60,799 nt of DNA from a virus (taxonomy: Duplodnaviria > Caudoviricetes): positions 1 through 60,799 of the IMG/VR virus record IMGVR_UViG_3300031851_006073, one strand, 5' to 3'. The translations under genes and the position numbers were made by a program. Positions 9,183 to 38,188 of the stretch are shown here, one piece after another. The notes below the pieces were generated by a model, which saw only the letters and a program-made list of their open reading frames with translations, ran no database searches and had not been told where the DNA came from. The first letter of the stretch is position 1, and every line of letters starts with the position of its first letter.

Positions 9183-9521
9183 GTGGCAAAGTTAAATAAA
9201 CGAAATTTAATTAAGAAGTTAGTAATCGAACCAAGCGGCCAAAAGCGCATGTTTTGGGCTAAAGAAATGAAGCTCCTCAATGATTTAATCGAGATTTTTC
9301 CCAAAGAGGTTTTTTGGGAGAGAATGAGCTTTGAAAAAGTCCCATCCCTTGCTGTTTTAAGGTCTGAACACGGACTTGTTAAATTAAAAAAACTATATAT
9401 GGAATTTAATTATATCATTCCGGAAAAAATAGAAATTCCCCTTGGAAATAAAACGGGAAAAGACAAAATTATCTCGAAAAAAACAAAAACAATACGACAA
9501 TTTATAGATGAGCAAAACTAA
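9183..9521 (+). CDS. Hypothetical protein (replication block)
   Basis: 112-aa ORF overlapping the start of recA. Confidence 0.7.
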   Translation: MAKLNKRNLIKKLVIEPSGQKRMFWAKEMKLLNDLIEIFPKEVFWERMSFEKVPSLAVLRSEHGLVKLKKLYMEFNYIIPEKIEIPLGNKTGKDKIISKKTKTIRQFIDEQN

Positions 9522-22631: not shown

Positions 22632-23084
22632 ATGTCATATTACTTCAAAAAAAATTCTAGACCAGATTCAAATAAAACAAAAACAACAATGAATCATCTA
22701 TTAAATGATTTATTCCTTAACTTCTCATCACCCGAAGAAACAGATCATTTTAATGATTTAGATGATTATCCAGTTCAAGCTAATGTTATTGCGAGAGAAA
22801 AAGAAACCGTAATAGAACTACTAACTCCAGGAATACCCAAGGAAGACATCAACATCGAATGCGACAACGGAAAGCTCTCTGTCTCTTATAAAACCCCAAA
22901 AGAAGAATCTATTGAAGGAGAGTATATTCAGCAACAAATCTTTAAAGATGGATTCAAGAATACATTTAAGCTTACGTCAGAATTGGATTCTGATAAAATA
23001 TCTGCATCAATGAACAACGGTATATTGCAAATTAAAATCCCTCGCAAAAAAGGAAAGTTATCAAATAAAATAAAAATTGATTGA
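22632..23084 (+). CDS. Small heat-shock protein (Hsp20/IbpA family)
   Basis: PGIPKEDINI...ASMNNGILQIKIP alpha-crystallin motifs. Confidence 0.9.
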   Translation: MSYYFKKNSRPDSNKTKTTMNHLLNDLFLNFSSPEETDHFNDLDDYPVQANVIAREKETVIELLTPGIPKEDINIECDNGKLSVSYKTPKEESIEGEYIQQQIFKDGFKNTFKLTSELDSDKISASMNNGILQIKIPRKKGKLSNKIKID

Positions 23085-23108
23085 CATTTCTGATATATTA
23101 TATATAAT
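23081..23108 (+). promoter_or_regulatory. sigma70-type promoter
   Basis: TTGACA-N16-TATAAT upstream of ATG 23121. Confidence 0.7.
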
Positions 23109-23120
23109 CTTACTTTAATT

Positions 23121-23771
23121 ATGAAAAAATTATTAATTACTGCTACCGCCATTACGGCGCTTTTTATTAACGCAGCTTACGCTGGATCAGGCTCTGTATC
23201 TCTTGGATATGGAAGCGACACATTCAACAAAGGTTCCTTACTAACAGAAGAAAGTTTCTCTGCTTCAGTGGGTTACAGTCAAGAAATTGAAAGTCTAACT
23301 CTTGAAGGTTCGGCATCTTCTTTTGACGAACTATCTGACGGACAAAGTGTTTATGTTTTTTCTGTAGGAGCTTCTTCCGAATTTGCAGATTTACTTAAAG
23401 TTTATGTGGGTCTTGAGCACGAAGAAGTTGTAAGCGGTCAAAGTCAACTCGATGCAGTTGTGAAATTGAGCTTAAATACTGTATTGTCGCCTTATGTATT
23501 AATTCAAAGAGATACAAGTGACAATAACTATGTGTTCGAAGGAGGAATGTCGCATGGCTTTGATTTGCAATTCGCAAACCTAACCATTGTCGGATCAGTC
23601 GGCAATGCAGATAGGTATGGGGTTGAAAATAATGATTATTATCAAGTCGGAGCAACTCTTTCAAAAAATCTAACTAATTCTATTGAAGGTTCTTTAGGGT
23701 ATGCGAGAGTTGACTCTGAATCTATGAATGGAGAGGATTTATTGTCCGCAGCATTTAACTTTTCTTTTTAA
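23121..23771 (+). CDS. Outer-membrane beta-barrel protein
   Basis: Sec signal ending AYA, amphipathic beta strands, C-terminal FNFSF BamA-type signal. Confidence 0.75.
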   Translation: MKKLLITATAITALFINAAYAGSGSVSLGYGSDTFNKGSLLTEESFSASVGYSQEIESLTLEGSASSFDELSDGQSVYVFSVGASSEFADLLKVYVGLEHEEVVSGQSQLDAVVKLSLNTVLSPYVLIQRDTSDNNYVFEGGMSHGFDLQFANLTIVGSVGNADRYGVENNDYYQVGATLSKNLTNSIEGSLGYARVDSESMNGEDLLSAAFNFSF

Positions 23772-23794
23772 GAAATCTAGTAAATGTTCCATAG

Positions 23795-23820
23795 GCCACC
23801 CAGAAATGGGTGGCTTTTTT
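23795..23820 (+). terminator. Rho-independent terminator
   Basis: GCCACCCA-GAAA-TGGGTGGC followed by T6. Confidence 0.88.
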
Positions 23821-23825
23821 GTGTA
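23821..23825 (+). promoter_or_regulatory. GTGTA motif
   Basis: Immediately after the terminator, 30 nt before ATG 23856. Confidence 0.5.
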
Positions 23826-23855
23826 ATTATAGTCTCTAAATATTATAATCCTACA

Positions 23856-26126
23856 ATGAAAAAACTAATTTTATTATTCCTATCATCAATCTATTGCTTC
23901 GGCGATAAACTTTACTTTAACAACGGAAAAGGTCTAAAAGGAGATGTTCTTGAGGCGAATGCGACTCACGCTCTAATAAAAAGATCAAGCGATTTGCAAC
24001 TATTCAAAATAGCAATAGATTCTTTAACAGAAGATAATCAGGCTTATATTAAAAACAACTTCCCGCCCAGTCACACAGCTTTGCCTAAATTCAAGAAACC
24101 TCTATCAGATAATGATTTAAATACTCATGCGAGGTACATCGACAGTTTAATTGAAGCAAAATTAAGATCATATAATCTAAGACCAAATAAAGAGGTTAAC
24201 GATGCTACGTTTTTACGTAGATCATATTTAAAAGTTATCGGACGAACACCATCCTTAATCGAAGTAGAAGCTTTTTTAAATAATAAGGATAAAAATAAAA
24301 GATCTCAGCTAATTGATCAACTTTTAGGGAGCGAAGGGTATGTAAGTCATTGGTTTAATTTCTGGGCGGATATCTTAAGAATAAAAGACAGGTTAAATAA
24401 TAGAGTCTCAGGAATACCATACAAAAATTATGTAAAAGAATTTATATCAAATAATAGACCATACGACGAATGGGTTAGAGAAATGCTTTCTTCGTCCGGA
24501 GCTCTTTGGGTAAAAGGGAACGAAGGGGTTAGTTATTTCGCTCGAGACGTAAACATGCCTCTCGACAACATGGCAAACACAGTGCGGGTTTTTCTTGGAA
24601 CTAGTCTTGAGTGCGCTCAATGCCACGATCACCCTTTTGATCGCTGGACACAAAAGCAGTTCTATGAAATGGCGGCATTTACCAGCGGATCAACAAACTT
24701 AAGAAGAAGAGGTGTCGACAATTTGGGTCAATTCAACAGGCTAGTTGGAGCCGAACAACGAAGGCTTGAAAAAGCAGGTGAACCGCAAAAATCCAGGCAA
24801 CTAAGAAATGAATCTAGATCTATTCAAGATGTCCTTCAAACAGGTCTTGATAGTTTAGGTTCTGGCAAAATTAATTTGCCAAATGATTATCAATACGATA
24901 ATGCAAAACCAAGCGAAGTACTTTCAGGAAAAACAATTTTTGGTCAAGAAATTAACATAAAAACTAAAACTCCAGAAGCAGGTTCTAGGGAAATTTACGC
25001 TAATTGGTTAGCGTCAGACTCTAATCCAAGATTTACTGCGGTAATTGTAAATCGCCTATGGAAAGAGGTTTTCGGCTTAGCTTTAATCGAGCCTCTAGAT
25101 AATATGTTTGATGATACATTAGCTACAGATGCAAAGCTGCAGCTTCATTTAGAAAAAGTTATAGTTGCGCTAGACTATGACTTGAAAGAGTTTCTCAGGA
25201 TACTTTATAATACAAAAACTTTTCAAAGACAATCTGTCATTAGAGATGTTATCCCAAAAGATAATAAAGATCAATCTATACCTATTGAGGTAAAATGGAT
25301 TGTAGCTGGCCCAGACCCAGAAAAACAATCAAAAAATGCAATACCTTATTTTTACCAAGGCCCAATACTTGAAAGAATGAGTGGCGAACAAATTTGGGAT
25401 TCATTAGTAAATTTAACGTTTAACGATATAGACTCCAGAAAGTTAGAGCAAAACACAAAAGGTTACGAACAGTTTGAAAATTTCTCACCTATGACTGGAG
25501 AAGAATTATTTCAAGATCTTATGGCCAAAATTAATAAAACAGAAAGGCCAAAAATGGCAAGCGAAACAAAGTTTTCGGAACCAATAAATACCGATTGCCC
25601 AATCAAACCTGGAAGAGCTATTGATCCAACCTTATTAGCTCTCAACGAAAATGGAGAAACAATTGCATTTTGCTGTGAATCTTGTGTTGATAAATTCAAA
25701 TCTCAACAACAATCCAAGCAAGATGAATATAAACAAAATCACGTGAAAGACCGCAACTCCGTAAGAGCTTCTGAATTACCCTCCCCCGCGCCCGTAGGGC
25801 ACCTTATTCGCGAGTTTGGCGGTTCAGACAGAGAGCAGATAGAAAACTCAAATAAAAGCGCTTCTGCAACGCAGGTGCTAAACCTACTCAATGGTTTTGT
25901 GGAAACTAGATTATTAAAAAATAAAAACTTTGAAATTATTAAAGCGATTGAATCTCAAAAATCGTTAAACGATAAAGTTAAAGTAGGATATAAATATATA
26001 TTGAACAGAGAACCTTCTTCAAAAGAAATGAAAATATTTACTGACAATATTAAAGATAAAAAAGAGGCATATAAGGAAATAATATGGACGTTAATCAATA
26101 CTCATGAATTTATATTTGTGAAATAG
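23856..26126 (+). CDS. DUF1549/DUF1553 (PSCyt2/PSD1) planctomycete-type cytochrome protein with SHD1-like and YHS-like domains
   Basis: Signal peptide MKKLILLF (start moved to 23856); FLRRSYL..GRTP, heme motif CAQCHDHP, VNRLW, CPIK...AFCCESC, terminal NTHEF. Confidence 0.85.
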   Translation: MKKLILLFLSSIYCFGDKLYFNNGKGLKGDVLEANATHALIKRSSDLQLFKIAIDSLTEDNQAYIKNNFPPSHTALPKFKKPLSDNDLNTHARYIDSLIEAKLRSYNLRPNKEVNDATFLRRSYLKVIGRTPSLIEVEAFLNNKDKNKRSQLIDQLLGSEGYVSHWFNFWADILRIKDRLNNRVSGIPYKNYVKEFISNNRPYDEWVREMLSSSGALWVKGNEGVSYFARDVNMPLDNMANTVRVFLGTSLECAQCHDHPFDRWTQKQFYEMAAFTSGSTNLRRRGVDNLGQFNRLVGAEQRRLEKAGEPQKSRQLRNESRSIQDVLQTGLDSLGSGKINLPNDYQYDNAKPSEVLSGKTIFGQEINIKTKTPEAGSREIYANWLASDSNPRFTAVIVNRLWKEVFGLALIEPLDNMFDDTLATDAKLQLHLEKVIVALDYDLKEFLRILYNTKTFQRQSVIRDVIPKDNKDQSIPIEVKWIVAGPDPEKQSKNAIPYFYQGPILERMSGEQIWDSLVNLTFNDIDSRKLEQNTKGYEQFENFSPMTGEELFQDLMAKINKTERPKMASETKFSEPINTDCPIKPGRAIDPTLLALNENGETIAFCCESCVDKFKSQQQSKQDEYKQNHVKDRNSVRASELPSPAPVGHLIREFGGSDREQIENSNKSASATQVLNLLNGFVETRLLKNKNFEIIKAIESQKSLNDKVKVGYKYILNREPSSKEMKIFTDNIKDKKEAYKEIIWTLINTHEFIFVK

Positions 26127-26488
26127 CCCCACTTCTTCTCTCTAAAAAAATATACCATATTTTTCTTCATATATAACCAACCAAATTTATCGGTATATAT
26201 GTAATCTTCATGCTCCGGAGTATTATATATCCAACCCAGTCTCTGAGAATACATCCAACACATAGAAGTCTTCTCTTTGTACGTTCCGTATACTTTGCCG
26301 ATATTTCTATAATTAAACCAAATGGGCTTAGGCTTTCTTTGACACATCCTTCTCCATTCTCCCAGATTTAAAGGTTGAGTATACTTGGCTTGCTCTTTGC
26401 ACCAATCACAATTATCTAAAAAATCTTGCCTTTGTAATCTAGCCCATAAAATACTGGGTATAACGAACATAAGTAATAAAAACCTCAT
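26102..26488 (-). CDS. Secreted protein with Trp/Gly (xGWxY) repeats
   Basis: Signal-like N-terminus, CDWC, repeats WMYSQRLGWIY / YIYTDKFGWLY; own GTGTA at 26498-26502. Confidence 0.65.
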   Translation of the reverse strand: MRFLLLMFVIPSILWARLQRQDFLDNCDWCKEQAKYTQPLNLGEWRRMCQRKPKPIWFNYRNIGKVYGTYKEKTSMCWMYSQRLGWIYNTPEHEDYIYTDKFGWLYMKKNMVYFFREKKWGYFTNINS

Positions 26489-26497
26489 TATATATGA

Positions 26498-26531
26498 TAC
26501 ACTTTCTGTTGACTTTTCTCAAAATTGTGTA
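26498..26531. promoter_or_regulatory. Back-to-back divergent GTGTA motifs
   Basis: tacac 26498-26502 (9 nt to ATG 26488) and gtgta 26527-26531 (10 nt to ATG 26542). Confidence 0.6.
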
Positions 26532-26541
26532 ATAATCTATT

Positions 26542-27834
26542 ATGAACTTTAATACAATAGATGAATTAGGAAGAAGAGAATTTATAGCTCATGCAGCTAA
26601 AGCGTGTTTCGGCGTGGGATTGATGCCGATGGCAGGAGCATATATACATAACAATGTTAGCGCTTTGAACCCTGGAGCAAGAGTTCCGACAGCAAGGCAC
26701 GTTATTTACTTAAACATGGGGGGAGCCATGTCTCACCTTGATACATTTGGACCAAAGCCAGATGCGCCAGATATCCAAGGCCCTACTAAATCTATTTCAA
26801 CAAGCGCAGACGGGGTAATTCTTTCTGAAAACTTGCCAAAAACTGCAGAACTCATGCATCACGCAGCAATAATTAAAACGATGAACACAAGCCAAGGGGC
26901 TCACGAACAAGCAAGTTATTTAATGCATACAAGCTACCTTAAACGAGGTACAATTGTTCACCCTACATTTGGTAGCTGGGTATCTAAACTTTCTGGCTCA
27001 ATTAATAGAACGATACCTAGTAACGTTAAAATAGGTGGGGGCGGAGGCGGCGCGGGCTTTTTAGAATCAAAATATGGAGCGTTACCAATTAACAATCCAA
27101 ACTCGGGATTAGCTAACAGCAAAATGGCTTCATACTTAGATCACGAGCATTTTCAAAGCAGAATATCTATTGCAGAAGCTTTGAATGAAAATTTCTCCAC
27201 TCAGTTTCCGCAGAAAAAAGTAAGAGCTTATTCCGACTTATATAAAGATGCAATTAAATTAATGAATAGCAATGATCTAAATGCTTTTGACATTACAAAA
27301 GAGCCAGAGTCAACAAGCAATCTTTATGGTCAAACTAATTTTGCAAAAGGATGCTTATTAGCAAGAAGGCTCGTAGAGCATGGCGTAAGATATGTTGAGG
27401 TAACAAGAGGGGGATGGGATACGCATGATAATAACTTTGATAGAGTAGCAGCAAATTGTACCGATATCGATCAAGCTCTAAGCGGTCTGTTAATTGATTT
27501 AAACCGAAGAGGTATGCTTTCTAACACCTTAGTAGTTTTAACTTCTGAATTTGGAAGAACTCCAAACATCAATGGAAGAGACGGAAGAGATCACTGGCCT
27601 TATTGTTTTACGGCTTTTTTGGCAGGAGGAGGAGTTAAGGGAGGAATGACTTATGGAGAAACCGACAAAACAGGCCGCACCCCCGTAGAAGGCAAGCCTG
27701 TTAAGCCTGAAGACTTGAATGCAACTATTGCACATACTTTGGGCTTATCATTAAATGATTACCAATACTCTCCTTCCGGAAGACCGTTTACAATAGCCCA
27801 TAAAGGCGAGCCTTTGCTTGATATCTTGGCATAA
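26542..27834 (+). CDS. DUF1501 family protein, Tat-exported
   Basis: GRREFI twin-arginine signal; GGAMSHLDTF, LLARRLVEHGV, GWDTH, SEFGRTP, GRDHW. Confidence 0.9.
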   Translation: MNFNTIDELGRREFIAHAAKACFGVGLMPMAGAYIHNNVSALNPGARVPTARHVIYLNMGGAMSHLDTFGPKPDAPDIQGPTKSISTSADGVILSENLPKTAELMHHAAIIKTMNTSQGAHEQASYLMHTSYLKRGTIVHPTFGSWVSKLSGSINRTIPSNVKIGGGGGGAGFLESKYGALPINNPNSGLANSKMASYLDHEHFQSRISIAEALNENFSTQFPQKKVRAYSDLYKDAIKLMNSNDLNAFDITKEPESTSNLYGQTNFAKGCLLARRLVEHGVRYVEVTRGGWDTHDNNFDRVAANCTDIDQALSGLLIDLNRRGMLSNTLVVLTSEFGRTPNINGRDGRDHWPYCFTAFLAGGGVKGGMTYGETDKTGRTPVEGKPVKPEDLNATIAHTLGLSLNDYQYSPSGRPFTIAHKGEPLLDILA

Positions 27835-27855
27835 AAAAGCCCCCTTACGGGGGCT
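27833..27855 (-). terminator. Rho-independent terminator between convergent genes
   Basis: AGCCCCC-GTAA-GGGGGCT followed by a T run on the minus strand. Confidence 0.85.
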
Positions 27856-32511: not shown

Positions 32512-33136
32512 ATTTCAAAAAAATAAAAAGTATTTACTGTTTGATTATGAAACATGTAATTTAAATCTTGTATCAAATAATAAACCATGGCAACTAGCGT
32601 TTCTTGTGATAGAAAATAATAAAATTGTAGAGCAAAAAGATTATTGGCTTAAGTGGGACGAACTAAACGTTTCTCCTGATGCGGCTAAGATCACAGGCTT
32701 TACAGAATCAAAGTACAAGAAAAAAGCTTCGTGCCCCAAAGTCGCGCTAGATCATTTAGAGAAGTATTTGTATGACGACTCCTATCTTAAGGTTGGGCAC
32801 AACTTACTAGGGTTTGATGTTTATATGCATAATGTTCACCGCAAATTAATTGATGAAAATGCAGAAACAGATTTTAGCTATACTGAGCACTTAGTAGATA
32901 CCTTATGCCTTGCAAAAGCTCTCAAAAAGAGAATAAAGCTAGATAAAGATGATAATTTTTTAGCGTGGCAATACCGACTTAACCACCTGATTGAAAGAGG
33001 CTTAAGTTGCAACTTAAGGCAGTGCTGCAAAGATTTTGATGTTGACTTTGATGAGAAAAAATTGCATGATGCCTTATACGACATTAAAGTTAACTACGAA
33101 GTATTTAAAAAAATGATATGGGAAATAGAAGTATAA
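32492..33136 (+). CDS. DEDDh 3'-5' exonuclease (DnaQ/epsilon-like)
   Basis: FDYET, GHNLLGFD, HDALYD; start at ATG 32492 after GGAG. Confidence 0.88.
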   Translation: MKESLLRFQKNKKYLLFDYETCNLNLVSNNKPWQLAFLVIENNKIVEQKDYWLKWDELNVSPDAAKITGFTESKYKKKASCPKVALDHLEKYLYDDSYLKVGHNLLGFDVYMHNVHRKLIDENAETDFSYTEHLVDTLCLAKALKKRIKLDKDDNFLAWQYRLNHLIERGLSCNLRQCCKDFDVDFDEKKLHDALYDIKVNYEVFKKMIWEIEV

Positions 33137-35694
33137 TGAATTTTACAGAACAATTCGAAAAGTATGAAGACTGCGCCCCTCCAGGAGTGAAGCTTCCTGA
33201 GATTAAAATTGAAAAAAAATATTATGAAATGCTTGAAGCGTCAGAAGATATTTCTAACTTCGACTTTCTTCGAAAGCTTTGCTATAAAGGGGTATACGAT
33301 AGAGGGGTAGATAAATTTAAAAACAAGAAAGATTACTTTGAAAGAGCAAAATCGGAATTAAAAATTTTAGATGAACTAGGATTTATAGATTATATTTTAT
33401 TAAACTGGGATATAATAAATTATTGCCACGAAAATGATATTCCGACTGGCCCAGGAAGAGGGTCAGCCGCAGGCTCTTTAGTATTATATCTAATTGGGGT
33501 TACAAATGTCGACCCCGTTAAGTATAGTTTGTTTTTTGAGCGCTTTGTGTCCAAGAGTAGGGCGAGAAAAATAGAAAAAGACGGAGAAACGTATCTTGAC
33601 GGCAGTCTTTTGGCGGATATTGATAATGATATCGCATATGAAAGACGAGCTGAAGTTATCGAGTATATTGAAAGAAAGCATCCCTCTCGTACAGCAAAAA
33701 TATTAACCCTTAACACTCTTAGCGGAAAACTTTGCGTGAAAGAATGCGGCAAAATTGTTGGAGAACTTTCTGAACAAGAAGTTAATGAAGTCAGTAGTAC
33801 TATTCCAAAAAAATTCGGTATTGTTATGCCTATTTCGTCCGCAACAGAAGAAAGTGAAAAATTTGCAGATTGGGCGGCAAATAATCCAGAAGTTTTCGAG
33901 ATCTCTCTCAAACTAGAAGGTTTAAATAAAAACTCTGGCGTCCACCCTAGTGGCATTGCGATTTCTTTTCAAAAAATCACAGACATTTGTCCAATTCAAA
34001 AATCGAATGACGGAGCTTTAGTTACGGGTTACGACATGAATTGGGTGGCGGAGCTGATGGTTAAATTTGATATCTTAGGATTAAGGACTTTAAGTGTGAT
34101 TTATGATGTATGCAGAAACCTAGATATTGACATCTCATCGGTAGACCTTAATAACGCGGACGTATACACGCCGCTACGCTCCCTCAGCACGCCTCACGGA
34201 CTCTTTCAATTAGAATCTGACACAAACTATAGAGTCTGCAAAAAGATCAAACCTAAAGACTTAGAGCAGCTTAGCGCAGTTGTAGCAATTGGAAGGCCTG
34301 GAGCCTTAGAATTTTTAGATGATTACGCAACATATTCTGAGACGGGGGAAGCTCAGGTTATTCATGAATTTTTTAGTGACGTTTTAGATTATACGGGAGG
34401 AATCCCCCTTTACCAAGAGCAGCTAATGCAAATGGCAGTTAAGGTTGGATTCACGCTTGATGAAGCGGAGCAGCTTAGAAGAATTGTAGGTAAGAAAAAA
34501 GTCGACCAAATGCCTGCTTGGAAAAAAAAGATTGAGGACAAAATCCAGCAAAATAATCTTCCTTCAGAAATCTCTCATATACTATGGAGCGTCGCAGAAG
34601 ATAGCGCAAATTATTCTTTTAATAAATCGCACTCTCTTGCATACGCAACTCTGTCTGCTTGGACAGCATATTTAAAATTCAATTACCCAAGAGAATTTTT
34701 TATATCCTTATTAAAAATGACCAAATACGAACCATCTCCGCAGGAAGAAATATCAAAAGTTTCTAAGGAATTGTCCAGTTTCGGCATTAAACTTTTATGC
34801 CCTGATCTAGCTAAGTCTAGTATGGATTTTTCTTTTGAAGAAAAGAATATTAGATTTGGGTTAAATAGTATTAAAGGCGTAAGTGAGAAATCACTTCAGT
34901 CTCTCAGAGACTTTCGTTCTACCGAGACTCCCACAAAATATGATATCTTTCTTGCGGCAAAGCAGGCTGGATTAAATATTGGAATCTTAAGTTCGTTAAT
35001 ACAAGCTGGAGCTTTAGAAAGTAAAGGCGAAAACAGGTCTTTAATGGCTCTTGAAGCTCAAGCGTTTAACCTTCTTACTGATAGAGAGAAGCGTAATTTT
35101 ATTTCTCTTGGAGAAAAATATGAATACAAACTTCTAAACTGCATAGCAGACGCCAAAAAAGGAGACTTGGTCGGAGATGACGGTAAACCATTAATGAAAG
35201 AGTCTAGATTCAAAACGTTCAAGAAGAAATATGATGTTTACAAATTAATTTATGACAAAAATAAAATGTATCAAGGTTTCGCGAATTGGTATTTTGAAAC
35301 AGAACTTCTTGGATATAGCCATAGCTCATCCCTTAAATCGTGTTTTATTGATTCTTATAAAGCTTTAAAAGATTCAAGGGATTTAAATCTCATGGATTCG
35401 GATGAAAAAGGTAAATTCATTGGAGTCGTGGAAGACTGTATTAAAAGAACTTCTCGCAACGGGAACAAATATATGAAGCTGTCAATTACAGATGAACACG
35501 GCAAATATGACGCCATGCTTTTAAATTCCAGAAGAGGCAATTTTTATGACAGATATTTCGAATCAAAGAAGAAAACTCCATCAAAAAAGAATATAATCGT
35601 AGTGTATGGAAGAAAAGGGGAAGACATAGTATTTCTGGACTCATTAAACATAATGGATGAAAAGATATACATGAAAATGTCTGATATTAAATGA
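33136..35694 (+). CDS. dnaE: DNA polymerase III alpha catalytic subunit lacking the PHP domain
   Basis: GPGRGSAAGS, FERF, ADIDND, HPSG, KFDILGL, LYQEQ, SFNKSH, C-terminal OB fold; TAATG-coupled start. Confidence 0.93.
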   Translation: MNFTEQFEKYEDCAPPGVKLPEIKIEKKYYEMLEASEDISNFDFLRKLCYKGVYDRGVDKFKNKKDYFERAKSELKILDELGFIDYILLNWDIINYCHENDIPTGPGRGSAAGSLVLYLIGVTNVDPVKYSLFFERFVSKSRARKIEKDGETYLDGSLLADIDNDIAYERRAEVIEYIERKHPSRTAKILTLNTLSGKLCVKECGKIVGELSEQEVNEVSSTIPKKFGIVMPISSATEESEKFADWAANNPEVFEISLKLEGLNKNSGVHPSGIAISFQKITDICPIQKSNDGALVTGYDMNWVAELMVKFDILGLRTLSVIYDVCRNLDIDISSVDLNNADVYTPLRSLSTPHGLFQLESDTNYRVCKKIKPKDLEQLSAVVAIGRPGALEFLDDYATYSETGEAQVIHEFFSDVLDYTGGIPLYQEQLMQMAVKVGFTLDEAEQLRRIVGKKKVDQMPAWKKKIEDKIQQNNLPSEISHILWSVAEDSANYSFNKSHSLAYATLSAWTAYLKFNYPREFFISLLKMTKYEPSPQEEISKVSKELSSFGIKLLCPDLAKSSMDFSFEEKNIRFGLNSIKGVSEKSLQSLRDFRSTETPTKYDIFLAAKQAGLNIGILSSLIQAGALESKGENRSLMALEAQAFNLLTDREKRNFISLGEKYEYKLLNCIADAKKGDLVGDDGKPLMKESRFKTFKKKYDVYKLIYDKNKMYQGFANWYFETELLGYSHSSSLKSCFIDSYKALKDSRDLNLMDSDEKGKFIGVVEDCIKRTSRNGNKYMKLSITDEHGKYDAMLLNSRRGNFYDRYFESKKKTPSKKNIIVVYGRKGEDIVFLDSLNIMDEKIYMKMSDIK

Positions 35695-35700
35695 TTTACA

Positions 35701-35705
35701 GTGTA
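35701..35705 (+). promoter_or_regulatory. GTGTA motif
   Basis: 5 or 11 nt before ATG 35711/35717. Confidence 0.55.
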
Positions 35706-35710
35706 ATTAA

Positions 35711-38188
35711 ATGAAAATGACTCCAAAACCTAACTTTACGCCTCGAGCGCAACAAGCTATAAATGAAGCCAAAAAAGTTGCTAAAAAATATTTCAACGAG
35801 TATATCGCACTAGATCATCTATTTTTCGGCATGGTAAATTTAAATGCTGGTATTTTGAGTGAGATTTTGTTTTTATTGCAAATTGACCAAGCGCAATTAA
35901 AAGAAAAAATCGAAGACGCTATTTTTGCAGCATCTTCACAAGATGAATTTAATGCAGATCCAGAAGAAGTACGACCTGTTTATGACGAACATTTCCATTT
36001 AGTATTAAAGGTTGCGGCCTCTATTAGCGAAAAGCTTGGCCATGAATATGTAGGTATAGAACATATGCTATTAGCTTTGCTTAAATACGAAGAGTCAAAT
36101 ATACCAGAGTATTTTGATTCATTTAATGCCTCGGAAACCGATATTATTGCTGAAGTAAGAGAATACCTTCATTTATCAAAAGAGCATCAACCTGCCGAAA
36201 AAAGAAAGGAAAAACGCTTTATCCAGGCAGCTCCGGTGAAGGATGTGAAACTTCAAAATCTAGAGAAGTTTGCAACCAATTTAAATTCGCTAGCTTCTCA
36301 GGGAAAATTTGATACCATAATAGGGAAAAATGAAGAAATATCTGAAGTCTGCGAGATTTTATGCAGAAGAACCAAGAATAACCCAGTTCTTTTAGGCGAT
36401 CCAGGAGTAGGTAAAACCGCCATAGTTGAAGGCTTAGCTCAAGAAATCACTAACGGATCCTGCTCTGATTTCTTGTTGAATAAAACAATTTACTCGCTCG
36501 ACCTAGGTTCTTTAATTGCCGGAACAAAATATAGAGGGCAATTTGAAGAAAGGTTGAAAGGAATTATTGAAGACGCGAGAAAAAATAAAGATATAATATT
36601 ATTTATTGATGAAATACATACTTTAGTAGGGGCGGGTAGCGCCGAAGGAAGTATGGATGCAGCAAACCTGCTAAAGCCATTACTGGCGAGAGGTGAGTTA
36701 AAATGTATCGGGGCAACTACGCAAGAAGAATATAAAAAATCTATATTAAAAGATGGAGCTCTAGACAGGAGGTTTCAAGGTGTAAAGGTGATCGAACCAA
36801 CCAAAGAGGAAGCCAAACAAATAATTTACGGAATAAAAACCAAATACGAGCAATTCCACAGTATTCACTATCCAGATGAAGTGCTAGATTTAGTTGTAAA
36901 CCTTTCGGCGAGATATATTGTAGATAAACAATTTCCTGATAAAGCTATTGACATTCTTGACCAAGTGGGCTCGAAGGTCAAAATCAAAAACATCGAAAGG
37001 CCTCAGGAAGCTAAAGATATAGAGAGAGAGCTAGAAGATTTGGCGGTTGAGGAATCAAAAGTCCACTTAACTGGCGCAAGATCTATTGAATTAGAAGATC
37101 AGCAGCTAAACCTACTTGAGAGATATGACGAAGTTATTTCTAAATGGGCAAAAAAAACCATAAAATCTAAAATCTCAGTAAGAAAAAAGGATATATACGA
37201 AGTCATTTCTTCCAGAACAGGAATCCCTATGTCAGAAATTTCTAAAAAAGATTCAGAAAAAATGCTGGGACTCTTCAAGCAGTTAAATAAAAAAATAATC
37301 GGACAACACGAAGCCATTAAAGAAATTTCAGAATGCGTATTAAGGTCTAAATCTGGCTTGCAAGACCCGAGCAAGCCTGTAGGAAGCTTCTTGCTTGTAG
37401 GTTCAAGCGGCACAGGGAAAACATATACAGCAAAATGTATTGCTGAATTTATATATGGAAGCAAAGATAAGTTGATTCAGTTAGATATGAGCGAGTTTTC
37501 TGAAAAGATTTCTTCTAGTCGCCTTATAGGCGCTTCCCCAGGATATGTTGGCTATGAAGAAGGTGGAGAATTAACTGAAAAAGTCCGCAAAAACCCGTAT
37601 AGCGTTGTTTTGTTTGATGAAGTAGAAAAAGCGCATCCAGAGGTTTTAAATATTTTATTGCAAATCCTCGAAGAAGGTTTTGTTACAGACAATTCTGGTA
37701 GAAAAATCAACTTTTCTAATTGCACCATTATCTTAACAGGTAATATAGGTAGCGAAAAGATTAGCAAGCCCTCGATAGGCTTTGGCTCACCAATAGGAGA
37801 AACCGAAGCTATGAATAAGCTAAAGGATGAGTTAAAGACATTTTTTAGGCCAGAATTCTTAAACCGCTTAAATGAAATAATTTTATTTAAAAACTTCGAA
37901 GCAAAAGATATATCTAAAATTGTAAAGCTAGAATCTGACAAACTATCTTACAAATTAAAAGATAAAAATATCAAAATATCAATCACGCCCAAAGTATCAT
38001 CTTTTATCGCAGAAAATGCCGCTTTAGAGAAAATGGGGGCCAGGCCAGTAAAAAGGTTAATTCAAAAATATATAGAGAATAAATTATCAAAACTCATTCT
38101 AAGCAAAGAGTTAAGAGATAATCAAAACATTAAATTTAGTTTTATTAAAAACGAAATAATTTACAAAATTACGGAAGCAGAGGCTTAA
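35711..38188 (+). CDS. ClpA/ClpC-type Hsp100 ATPase
   Basis: Clp-N repeats, GDPGVGKT/IDEIH, GSSGTGKT/FDEVEK, PPGYVG-like SPGYVGY loop, IGF motif. Confidence 0.92.
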   Translation: MKMTPKPNFTPRAQQAINEAKKVAKKYFNEYIALDHLFFGMVNLNAGILSEILFLLQIDQAQLKEKIEDAIFAASSQDEFNADPEEVRPVYDEHFHLVLKVAASISEKLGHEYVGIEHMLLALLKYEESNIPEYFDSFNASETDIIAEVREYLHLSKEHQPAEKRKEKRFIQAAPVKDVKLQNLEKFATNLNSLASQGKFDTIIGKNEEISEVCEILCRRTKNNPVLLGDPGVGKTAIVEGLAQEITNGSCSDFLLNKTIYSLDLGSLIAGTKYRGQFEERLKGIIEDARKNKDIILFIDEIHTLVGAGSAEGSMDAANLLKPLLARGELKCIGATTQEEYKKSILKDGALDRRFQGVKVIEPTKEEAKQIIYGIKTKYEQFHSIHYPDEVLDLVVNLSARYIVDKQFPDKAIDILDQVGSKVKIKNIERPQEAKDIERELEDLAVEESKVHLTGARSIELEDQQLNLLERYDEVISKWAKKTIKSKISVRKKDIYEVISSRTGIPMSEISKKDSEKMLGLFKQLNKKIIGQHEAIKEISECVLRSKSGLQDPSKPVGSFLLVGSSGTGKTYTAKCIAEFIYGSKDKLIQLDMSEFSEKISSSRLIGASPGYVGYEEGGELTEKVRKNPYSVVLFDEVEKAHPEVLNILLQILEEGFVTDNSGRKINFSNCTIILTGNIGSEKISKPSIGFGSPIGETEAMNKLKDELKTFFRPEFLNRLNEIILFKNFEAKDISKIVKLESDKLSYKLKDKNIKISITPKVSSFIAENAALEKMGARPVKRLIQKYIENKLSKLILSKELRDNQNIKFSFIKNEIIYKITEAEA

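Follow-up and report, generated by a model that had tools for sequence, protein, structure and literature searches.

A DUF1549/DUF1553–DUF1501 gene pair captured from marine Opitutales by large phages and its putative role as a periplasmic ester hydrolase complex

The window analyzed here is the whole 60,799-nucleotide stretch of an IMG/VR virus record (IMGVR_UViG_3300031851_006073), which is linear and approximately 43% complete. Matches in PHROG to a tail fibre, UvsX, DnaB, primase, exonuclease, DNA polymerase, and large terminase identified it as a real phage fragment, and phage genes were found on both sides of a block encoding a PSCyt2 (DUF1549)–PSD1 (DUF1553) protein and a DUF1501 protein. 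The block contains the following features.

23793–23816, + strand: terminator-like, a 10-pair hairpin ending in a T run, downstream of the preceding OMP-like gene; bounds the block on its 5′ side
23819–23827, + strand: promoter-like phage motif TTGTGTAAT, 35 nt before the PSCyt2-PSD1 start and followed by a TATAAT-like box
23856–26126, + strand: PSCyt2 (DUF1549) + PSD1 (DUF1553) protein, 756 aa; model pLDDT 85.8
24612–24626, + strand: CAQCH, a CxxCH haem-c-type motif (aa 253–257), with an invariant His two residues on
25596–25685, + strand: single TRASH-like Cys module in PSD1, C-x24-CC-x2-C (aa 581–610)
26085–26117, + strand: conserved PSD1 C-terminal W-x-L-x-N-x-x-E-F-x-F helix, centre of the predicted DUF1501 interface
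26102–26488, − strand: 128-aa ORF that separates the genes of the pair; N-terminus signal-like
26525–26533, + strand: second copy of TTGTGTAAT, 15 nt ahead of the DUF1501 start; TTGACT lies 15–16 nt upstream
26542–27834, + strand: DUF1501 protein, 430 aa; full Pfam match, model pLDDT 87.5
27838–27855, no strand assigned: GC-rich hairpin where the DUF1501 and nrdB genes converge; bounds the block on its 3′ side

The PSCyt2-PSD1 protein is read from an ATG at 23856 within an ORF at 23784–26126 (+). This start was preferred because the terminator hairpin lies inside the longer frame and the relatives begin at the equivalent methionine. The protein comprises a Sec-type signal (aa 1–17), a small beta-barrel (aa 17–70), a helical core, and C-terminal helices. 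The PSCyt2 domain (PF07583) was matched at aa 95–277 (E = 2.2e-45; 155.6 bits against a cut-off of 29.8), and the PSD1 domain (PF07587) at aa 378–729 (profile positions 2–241 of 244; E = 5.4e-24; 85.4 bits against 28.5), the latter match being split by an insert. The CxxCH motif was present in all 103 full-length relatives and invariant in both alignments, and from it we infer that the protein binds haem. The N-domain had no Pfam match, SHD1 included, in the profile search. Its top fold match was the Sla1 SHD1 domain (2hbp; Z = 7.0, rmsd 2.7, 60 residues aligned), tied with Hfq/Sm barrels (Z = 6.0–6.4), and a small SH3-like barrel is the most fitting name for its predicted fold.

The insert had been described from the sequence alone as a YHS/TRASH-like domain. 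Its Cys module was indeed located, but the Pfam scores were all sub-threshold: TRASH_HVO_1752_C (E = 8.6e-4; 19.9 bits against 27), zf-FCS (E = 0.005; 17.0 against 22.4), and YHS (E = 0.011; 16.2 against 30.3). We therefore name the insert TRASH-like only. The TRASH match of a host copy (L057) reached 24.7 bits against the same cut-off of 27. The TRASH-type Cys signature is C ... C-x3-C, and the spacing C-x24-CC-x2-C, conserved in one phage clade (clade A, below) and in the hosts, is near to this signature, though not identical. This motif suggests that the insert binds metal.

The DUF1501 protein matched PF07394 over its full length (profile positions 1–390 of 390; E = 7.3e-111; 371.5 bits against 27). 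Its twin-arginine signal, RREF, lies at aa 11–14, and the arginine pair was invariant in all 77 aligned relatives; such a signal is usual in the DUF1501 family, though not family-defining. The motifs GWDTHDNNF (aa 291–299), TSEFGRTP (aa 334–341), and GRDHWP (aa 348–353) were also located, and aa ~159–241 (nt 27016–27264) form a helical cap. In these respects the sequence-only reading proved accurate: it had named a Sec-exported 756-aa protein with CAQCH and a Tat-exported DUF1501 protein with GWDTH, EFGRTP, and GRDHW motifs, and in the Pfam search that it proposed, DUF1549, DUF1553, and DUF1501 all scored above their gathering cut-offs.

The same reading had placed DUF1501 in the alkaline-phosphatase/sulfatase-like superfamily, and the predicted fold agrees. 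A Foldseek search with the model yielded 199 PDB matches at E ≤ 0.001, and the Z scores to nucleotide pyrophosphatase/phosphodiesterases (NPPs), PafA, sulfatases, and LtaS/EptA ranged from 20.5 to 15.5. In the VIA-align comparison, the highest values were for ENPP6 (5ege; Z = 20.5, rmsd 3.0, 244 residues aligned), ENPP7 (5udy; 20.3), PafA (5too; 20.3), and Xac NPP (7mw8; 19.6), with rmsd 3.0–4.2 and 241–268 aligned residues across the four but an identity of only 11–16%. These NPP/PafA-type enzymes use a Ser/Thr-type nucleophile rather than formylglycine, and we know of no cytochrome-like partner for them. The S1 formylglycine sulfatases share the superfamily fold (Z = 17–19) and a local similarity at the TSEFG/SDNG strand, and they were the only sequence-level PDB matches (E = 0.0013 or weaker). 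Unlike them, the window protein lacks the [CS]xPxR motif, which was found in 3 of 130 relatives, and had no match to Pfam Sulfatase at E ≤ 10. Its score against Pfam Phosphodiest (PF01663) was also below the cut-off (12.7 bits against 23; E = 0.098), whereas host orthologue L057 scored 24.2 bits (E = 3e-5); the likeness of the window protein to NPPs is at the level of the predicted fold only. Structural neighbours did not separate phosphodiesterases (Z of about 20) from sulfatases (Z = 17–19), the gap being 1–3 units.

The two products were also predicted to bind each other, in a multimer prediction of the kind proposed in the sequence-only reading. The prediction was made for an orthologous phage pair (L026; 48% and 72% identical to the window pair), using partner aa 97–714 and DUF1501 aa 52–432 with our own alignments. 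The complex scored 0.85 (runs: 0.85, 0.85, and 0.84), against 0.00 for the best of three controls; of 80 solved complexes 58 reach the mark that it passed, as do 2 of 110 mismatched pairs, counts that are only rough here because our own alignments were used. At least 90% of contacts agreed among runs, and the partner pLDDT was at least 86. Since sequence searches found no solved structure for either family, this result does not stem from a similar complex already known to the predictor. In the model, the PSD1 C-terminus (contacts at residues 699–714 of L026) meets the DUF1501 helical cap. Against this stands that the predicted DUF1501 interface residues were no better conserved than the rest of the protein (for example, L026 versus L035: 30 of 50 interface positions, 232 of 330 others). 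The modelling, with its controls, supports a heterodimer in which conserved PSD1 C-terminal helices clamp the DUF1501 cap.

Both genes are preceded by the phage motif GTGTA and the block is bounded by terminator-like hairpins, as had been noted at the outset. TTGTGTAAT occurred exactly twice in the window (chance expectation 0.72; at least two in 16 of 100 shuffles), and GTGTAAT was not enriched across the window (8 found, 6.3 expected). GTGTA lay at −45 to −1 of 12 of the 52 ORF starts in the window, including that of the tail fibre gene, where approximately 0.8 would be expected from its window-wide density. Among distinct 60-mers upstream of the partner gene, 20 of the 23 from phages contained it, but only 1 of the 26 from hosts. 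These distributions mark GTGTA(A/T) upstream of the pair as a phage-specific, promoter-like motif, which may be an extended −10 element of ordinary promoters. The earlier claim of late expression was too strong, as it rests on the sharing of this motif with the tail-fibre and structural-module genes. The 128-aa ORF between the two genes had no family match in the profile search; copies 50–74% identical to it occurred in nine related loci, and in most relatives it does not accompany the pair.

A survey of IMG/VR, also suggested by the sequence-only reading, recovered this DUF1501 gene, with the same phage neighbours, in at least 49 contigs of up to 213,830 bp, with DUF1501 identities of 61–99% among the 49 loci. 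The partner was directly upstream in 33 of them, in a shared HSP20/OMP/nrdAB/DnaE neighbourhood, and two 100%-complete phage records (194 and 203 kb) each had one PSD1 and one DUF1501 match. The remaining 16 loci carried DUF1501 without PSCyt2-PSD1, and no PSCyt2/PSD1 was found genome-wide in five of five such phage genomes that were 90–100% complete; the pair is therefore not obligatory for the phage. The carriers form an uncultured lineage of large (about 120–214 kb) marine phages, with Opitutales (Verrucomicrobiota) as their likely hosts. The pair was described in phages in no paper of the literature searched, in line with the earlier statement that it was not known as an auxiliary system.

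The closest cellular DUF1501 proteins were encoded in marine Opitutia/Opitutales/Puniceicoccaceae genomes, at 66–81% identity (next best, 53% and 50%); the partner was 46–63% identical to its Opitutales orthologues. In the closest cellular loci the two genes follow the same order, and phage markers are absent. Each of five such Opitutales genomes had 18–28 DUF1501 matches, and the comparison traces the phage genes to one particular PSCyt2-PSD1/DUF1501 operon among the host's roughly 20 DUF1501 paralogues. In the DUF1501 tree (75 rows), phage clade A (22 rows, support 97) was sister to one Opitutales group, and clade B was nested (support 100) inside another group, of orthologous marine Opitutales loci; in the partner tree (57 rows), clade A had support of 100, and clade B was sister to a Puniceicoccaceae row (support 95). 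The proposed comparison with host copies thus gave the same answer for both genes: the closest relatives are cellular, and the phage copies are nested among them or sister to them, as in an auxiliary gene. Clades A and B occupy different places in the phage map, and the trees indicate that related phages captured the host operon at least twice. By the Nei–Gojobori method, the median dN/dS among phages was 0.036 for DUF1501 (29 of 66 pairs usable) and 0.056 for the partner (21 of 55), indicating that both genes are under strong purifying selection. The view that the phage keeps the pair was therefore upheld, and relaxed selection, named in the sequence-only reading as a possible refutation, was rejected.

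The host loci (L051–L082, L087, and L093) have the order and orientation of the phage pair, but comprise four genes; the extra ones are a divergent multihaem cytochrome-TPR gene, present at 18 of 33 loci, and, downstream, a PSCyt1 cytochrome gene, present at 31 of 33. Neither flanking cytochrome occurred in any of the 49 phage loci. The host partner is approximately 840 aa long, and 20 of 28 such proteins have two TRASH-like modules, whereas phage partners have 714–760 aa and one module (26 of 33) or none (7 of 33). The phages trim the system, with no flanking cytochromes, fewer TRASH modules, and, in a third of a set of 49 loci (16/49), DUF1501 only. The proposal that the phage keeps a complete machine is doubtful, because the host locus has two cytochrome genes that no phage locus carries and because of the loci without a partner. 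The abundance of c-type cytochromes in the host locus agrees with a redox role no less well than with simple hydrolysis.

The families themselves are known from a "conserved genetic module" of DUF1501 with PSCyt1/PSCyt2/PSD1 in Planctomycetes, Verrucomicrobia, and Lentisphaerae, and in the parts of the two reports that treat this module its function is likewise unknown (PMC3542564; PMC5615132). As described there, the module shares with the phage pair its Pfam families, gene adjacency, DUF1501 twin-arginine signal, and a partner with a signal peptide and CxxCH. The phage pair differs from that described module in lying in a phage genome, in single copy and under a phage motif; in lacking PSCyt1, Big_2, WD40, and carbohydrate-binding domains; and in having the TRASH-like insert, specific to the Opitutales orthologue group.

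Our preferred reading, of moderate confidence, is that this host-derived auxiliary pair forms a periplasmic ester hydrolase complex that tops up the host enzyme; a phospho- or sulfo-ester hydrolase is the best guess. PSCyt2-PSD1 would leave by Sec, with haem attached by the host, and DUF1501 by Tat, folded and metal-loaded, and in the infected cell's periplasm the complex would act as an ester hydrolase of the alkaline phosphatase superfamily, metal-dependent and with a Ser/Thr nucleophile. Phosphoesterase would be its most likely activity, sulfoesterase a less likely one. By supplementing the host's own orthologous enzyme, it could keep a supply step, for example of phosphate for the adjacent nucleotide/DNA synthesis module, from becoming limiting during infection; DUF1501-only phages would probably borrow the host's PSCyt2-PSD1 partner. 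Cyanophage pstS and phoA are phage auxiliary genes for nutrient supply, and the pair resembles them in being host-derived, exported, periplasmic, selected in marine phages, and beside nucleotide-metabolism genes. It differs in its families and in that a predicted two-subunit complex has been copied, and copied repeatedly.

Among the alternatives, the pair might instead be a redox module, PSCyt2-PSD1 being a true c-type cytochrome that links DUF1501 to the host's periplasmic electron-transfer chain so that the phage sustains a respiratory or metal/sulfur redox step. Electron transport was proposed for the module by Kamneva et al. 2012 (PMC3542564, in the part concerned), and the invariant CxxCH with its second His, the cytochrome genes on either side of the Opitutales pair, and the TRASH-like metal module as a further hint all point this way. 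However, those flanking genes are missing from every phage locus, many phages retain DUF1501 without any cytochrome-like partner, CxxCH lies outside the confident predicted interface residues, and the DUF1501 fold is that of a hydrolase/transferase, with no known redox members among the top matches; we consider this reading unlikely. Somewhat less probable still is envelope remodelling or superinfection exclusion, in which DUF1501 would act like the phosphoethanolamine/glycerophosphate transferases of its superfamily, altering an envelope glycan or lipid to block further phage adsorption or ease release. EptA, MCR-1, LtaS, and PbgA are among its structural matches (Z = 15.5–16.5), and the OMP-like barrel (23121–23771) and the 128-aa secreted-type ORF are other exported products nearby. 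However, these transferases score lower than NPPs and sulfatases, and they are anchored in the membrane, unlike DUF1501 as a soluble Tat substrate; moreover, the phage gene is no diverged effector but orthologous to a conserved, housekeeping-like host locus with 72–81% identity across Opitutales.

Desulfation of algal polysaccharide fragments in the periplasm, keeping carbon and sulfur flowing during infection, seems similarly improbable: the absence of the formylglycine motif and of a Pfam Sulfatase match, together with the lack of a carbohydrate-binding module in this paralogue, weighs against the sulfatase-only PDB matches at the sequence level, the Z scores of 17–19, a sulfatase gene three genes downstream in the host locus, and the PSCyt genes near sulfatases noted in the relevant part of He et al. 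2017 (PMC5615132). That the block is an artefact of host DNA joined to phage DNA in a chimeric assembly, the other refutation foreseen by the sequence-only reading, or a neutral hitch-hiker in decay was rejected as extremely improbable. The window is incomplete and linear, and the GC content of the DUF1501 region (0.396) is slightly above the window average; however, the same junctions, with phage genes on either side, recur in 49 independent contigs, the frames are intact, dN/dS is 0.04–0.06, and a phage motif has been acquired upstream.

Present in single copy and with products predicted to bind each other, the phage pair offers a small handle on an orphan gene family that is very large in bacteria.

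The PSCyt2-PSD1 and DUF1501 genes of the window are a host-derived pair, which was repeatedly captured from marine Opitutales, is under selection, and is wired into the phage. The two genes were called as follows:

23784–26126, + strand, PSCyt2-PSD1 open reading frame, with an ATG at 23856 that gives a partner protein of 756 aa (ORF call)
26542–27834, + strand, DUF1501 open reading frame, 430 aa (ORF call)

The start at 23856 was preferred because a terminator-like hairpin (23793–23816) falls inside the longer frame and because the proteins of the relatives start at the corresponding Met and open with a Sec-type signal. The three Pfam families proposed in the sequence-only reading were all recovered: PSCyt2/DUF1549 (2.2e-45) and PSD1/DUF1553 (5.4e-24) in the 756-aa protein, and DUF1501 over the full length of the 430-aa protein (7.3e-111). 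The PSD1 match extends over aa 378–729 on a profile of 244 positions, and PSD1 therefore contains an insert. The motifs named in that reading were also located, namely CAQCH at aa 253–257 of the partner and GWDTHDNNF, TSEFGRTP, and GRDHWP in the DUF1501 protein, which in addition has RREF at aa 11–14. The inserted metal domain described as YHS/TRASH-like is present as a Cys module (aa 581–610), but it scores below the TRASH, zf-FCS, and YHS cut-offs and is therefore called only TRASH-like here. The SHD1-like N-terminal domain is a small beta-barrel whose best fold match is Sla1 SHD1 (Z 7.0, rmsd 2.7, 60 aligned), tied with Hfq/Sm barrels. Across 77 DUF1501 relatives, S64, T87, H121, D293, H295, and H351 were among the invariant residues, and E336 and D350 were conserved in at least 90%.

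Between the two genes, a 128-aa ORF with a signal-like N-terminus (26102–26488, − strand) shares 25 nt with the 3′ end of PSCyt2-PSD1 and is preceded by a separate GTGTA at −14. It had no Pfam match, and copies with 50–74% identity were found only in nine related loci (L002–5, L009, L011, L012, L014, and L015). Neither PHROGs v4 nor NCBIfam contained a family for this ORF, the partner, or the DUF1501 protein.

The window is a linear IMG/VR virus record, approximately 43% complete, and its PHROG matches include a tail fibre, a UvsX-like recombinase, DnaB, a primase, an exonuclease, a DNA polymerase, and a large terminase. The pair is flanked by HNH, HSP20, and OMP-like genes on one side and by nrdB/nrdA on the other. 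When compared with 50,697 GenBank phage records (INPHARED), the DnaE-like polymerase was <34% and the terminase <27% identical to anything in the set, and neither protein of the pair was matched by tblastn in these records, from which the window's own genome is possibly missing. In IMG/VR, DUF1501 was found at 61–99% identity in at least 49 loci, on contigs of up to 213,830 bp, and these 49 loci share one phage-gene neighbourhood. A chimeric assembly with host DNA, which the sequence-only reading had named among the results that would overturn it, was excluded because DUF1501 lies among like phage genes in all 49. A wider, profile-derived scan of IMG/VR gave 63 loci, 14 of them new; a partner-like gene lay upstream in two of the 14, and none was found within the 4-kb flanks of the other 12.

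Several other features of these phages were observed. In 33118–38188 (+), the window encodes a DnaE-like Pol III alpha as its replicative polymerase and, directly downstream, an 825-aa ClpB-like ATP-dependent protease/chaperone (phrog_4871, 1e-244). In most related phages, the pair is accompanied by two further genes (22632–23771, + in the window), one for HSP20 and one for a beta-barrel-like protein of 216 aa with a signal peptide; the beta-barrel-like protein weakly matched Phage_OMP (E 0.009) and a PEP-CTERM-associated OMP family (E 0.001), so several envelope-directed proteins are encoded in this part of the phage. More distant viral DUF1501 genes (34–44% identity) occur on other IMG/VR contigs (loci L184, L185, and L189–L192), and two of these genes are preceded by a PSCyt2/PSD1-like gene, so further paralogues have been taken up by other lineages of phages.

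For the origin of the pair, one genome per prokaryote species was scanned, which yielded 370 stretches encoding relatives, and the best 80 were kept. Among these best 80 of 370, the top 32 matches (66–81% identity) came from marine Opitutia/Opitutales/Puniceicoccaceae genomes with one exception, and the cellular matches that followed fell to 53% and 50%. The exception, L080 (JAYQMT010000004.1; 210,818 bp), is labelled Cellvibrionales but is probably an entire phage genome placed in a bacterial MAG by mis-binning, because its GC content is 0.35, it carries the phage OMP-like gene, and its DUF1501 falls inside a phage clade (clade C). In the Opitutales loci, the partner gene lies directly upstream of DUF1501, without phage markers. 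All five such Opitutales genomes contained 18–28 DUF1501 matches each, and the phages therefore carry one particular paralogue.

In a quick IQ-TREE phylogeny of DUF1501 (75 rows, with six partial rows, 12 identical rows, and the rows beyond L092 left out), the Opitutales and phage sequences formed one group (support 100). Phage clade A, to which the window belongs, comprised 22 rows with a support of 97 and was sister to one Opitutales group (support 86). The 5 rows of clade B fell inside another Opitutales group (support 100). Clade C, which comprises phages with DUF1501 only, and the phage locus L041 branched apart. The tree of the partner (57 rows, with five partial or masked rows and the rows beyond L086 left out) agreed with that of DUF1501, with clade A supported at 100 and clade B sister to a Puniceicoccaceae row (support 95). 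The map position differs between clades A and B as well, the pair lying between the OMP-like gene and nrdB in one clade and after nrdB in the other. The two trees and the differing map sites therefore indicate at least two joint captures of both genes. In six DUF1501-only phage loci (L036–L040 and L048), DUF1501 is preceded at a distance of approximately 60 nt by a string resembling a tRNA 3′ end (T-arm, acceptor stem, and CCA), which is possibly left over from an attachment or capture site; ARAGORN detected no whole tRNA in L036, L039, or L040.

Of 33 host loci, 18 have a divergent multihaem cytochrome-TPR gene on one side of the pair and 31 have a PSCyt1 cytochrome gene on the other, the remaining two loci ending before it, and the host locus continues with an aminotransferase-class-V gene and a sulfatase gene. 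None of the 49 phage loci carries any of these four flanking genes. Host partner proteins are approximately 840 aa long and contain two TRASH-like modules in 20 of 28 cases, one in six, and none in two (one of which is X-masked), whereas the phage partners contain one module in 26 of 33 cases (clade A, including the window) or none (7 of 33, clade B). In the survey of co-occurrence in IMG/VR suggested with the sequence-only reading, 33 of the 49 phage loci had the partner gene immediately before DUF1501 and 16 lacked it; one of these 16, L041, has no upstream sequence. In five DUF1501-only phage genomes (90–100% complete, 121–214 kb), no PSCyt2 or PSD1 match was found anywhere, and the same search was positive in both of two complete pair-carrying genomes used as a control. 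The phage version is a single-copy, trimmed pair (714–760 aa plus approximately 430 aa) that has clearly been kept by selection.

Within clade A, the median dN/dS (Nei–Gojobori) was 0.036 for DUF1501, from 29 usable pairs out of 66, and 0.056 for the partner, from 21 out of 55; the pairs outside the usable sets were saturated at synonymous sites. The DUF1501 protein of the window was 98% identical to that of phage locus L004 and 92% to that of L006, whereas the partner was 87% and 90% identical, respectively; this mosaic of identities suggests that related phages have recombined within 23856–27834. Of 23 distinct phage sequences, 20 have GTGTA in the 60 nt before the partner gene, with both independent phage clades represented, compared with one of 26 Opitutales sequences. 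Where a gap separates the two phage genes, the motif also precedes DUF1501; this applies to 10 of 33 phage sequences, and one of 30 host sequences has the motif there. In the window as a whole, GTGTA lies at −45 to −1 of 12 of the 52 ORFs, where approximately 0.8 would be expected, the tail fibre gene and several structural-module genes being among the 12; TTGAC-type boxes, not GTGTA, precede the replication genes. TTGAC(A/T/T) boxes were seen upstream of the starts at 9183, 11347, 23121, 29210 (−), 31738, 58603, and 59728. Judging from these motifs, the phage seems to have two promoter classes, TTGAC for replication and early-type genes and GTGTA for the tail-fibre and structural genes together with the pair, and GTGTA may be part of an extended −10 element.

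The DUF1501 model (pLDDT 87.5) has an alkaline-phosphatase-superfamily fold. Its closest neighbours in VIA-align were ENPP6 (Z 20.5), ENPP7 and PafA (both 20.3), and Xac NPP and ENPP4 (both 19.6), followed by sulfatases (Z 17–19) and by LtaS, EptA, and MCR-1 (Z 15.5–16.5). By sequence, the PDB returned only sulfatases for DUF1501, with E values of 0.0013 or weaker; the sulfatase C/S-x-P-x-R motif is absent from the window protein, and hhalign of the DUF1501 profile against a host S1 sulfatase gave a local match of 44 columns with a probability of 3%. For the partner, a sequence search of the PDB gave nothing meaningful, and its model (pLDDT 85.8) had no PDB match at a Foldseek E of ≤0.001 or a VIA-align Z of ≥8, the 756 aa having been queried whole, in which case single-domain matches may be missed.

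Modelling of the complex, another check suggested with the sequence-only reading, was performed with the pair of a clade B phage locus (L026) in place of the window pair, using partner aa 97–714 and DUF1501 aa 52–432, each with a separate alignment of our own. The score was 0.85 (runs of 0.85, 0.85, and 0.84), compared with 0.00 for the best of three controls. The mark used is reached by 58 of 80 solved complexes and by two of 110 mismatched pairs, rates that are approximate here because the alignments were our own. Contact agreement between the runs was at least 90%, and the pLDDT of the partner was at least 86. The confident contacts join the PSD1 C-terminal helices (mainly residues 603–714) to the DUF1501 helical cap (residues 161–243; aa 159–241 in the window), centred on the PSD1 side on the family-wide motif W-x-L-x-N-x-x-E-F; CxxCH and the DUF1501 motif residues are not among them. 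At the interface, DUF1501 residues show about the same degree of conservation as elsewhere in the protein, in the DUF1501-only phages too, which speaks neither for nor against binding. This controlled model supports binding between the orthologues and the view that the two products form a heterodimer, and it offers a concrete predicted interface for both families.

Their Sec and Tat signals suggest that the partner and the DUF1501 protein both act in the periplasm. Catalysis would fall to DUF1501 as the metal-dependent subunit, using a Ser/Thr nucleophile on a phospho- or sulfo-ester, and the phage copy would top up the host orthologue during infection. As to the role of such an enzyme, phosphate supply is tentatively favoured because DUF1501 most closely resembles phosphodiesterases and phosphatases in structure, lacks the sulfatase motif, and is encoded beside nrdAB and the replication genes; the main rival, a redox role, is kept alive by the richness of the host locus in cytochromes. 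A more specific scheme is conceivable, although we consider it rather unlikely. The phages would have picked one rate-limiting paralogue among approximately 20 host DUF1501 systems, a haem-/metal-dependent heterodimeric periplasmic esterase whose subunits are replaced in infection, with the pair-carrying phages supplying both subunits and the DUF1501-only phages docking the catalytic subunit into the host PSCyt2-PSD1 scaffold via the conserved interface of the cap and C-terminal helices. Cyanophages replace the D1 protein during infection, and the subunit replacement proposed for the Opitutales phages would resemble this.

In Planctomycetota and Verrucomicrobiota, where each genome encodes tens of paralogues, few protein families of unknown function are as large as DUF1501 and PSCyt/PSD. 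No function for DUF1501 was reported in the titles and abstracts of the literature searched. The DUF1501-PSCyt/PSD module has been described in PVC bacteria, its function being given as unknown by Kamneva et al. 2012 (PMC3542564) and He et al. 2017 (PMC5615132), and it also appears in a further source (PMC2754498); the Opitutales-type subgroup is possibly already visible in the family tree and locus figures (S13/S14) of Kamneva et al. In phages, a 61-aa ORF of a Pseudomonas phage is reported to have a weak CDD match to DUF1501. The sequence-only reading knew of no account of the pair in phages, and in agreement with this, no description was found among the main texts of non-subscription papers that were searched.

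The pair adds to the range of exported functions borrowed by marine phages from their hosts, and it is a host-linkage marker that ties an uncultured lineage of ~200-kb marine phages to Opitutales. Its repeated capture points to the physiological importance of one specific paralogue. If the scheme of subunit replacement is true, the predicted interface would be a general docking rule for thousands of PSCyt/PSD-DUF1501 pairs in Planctomycetota and Verrucomicrobiota.
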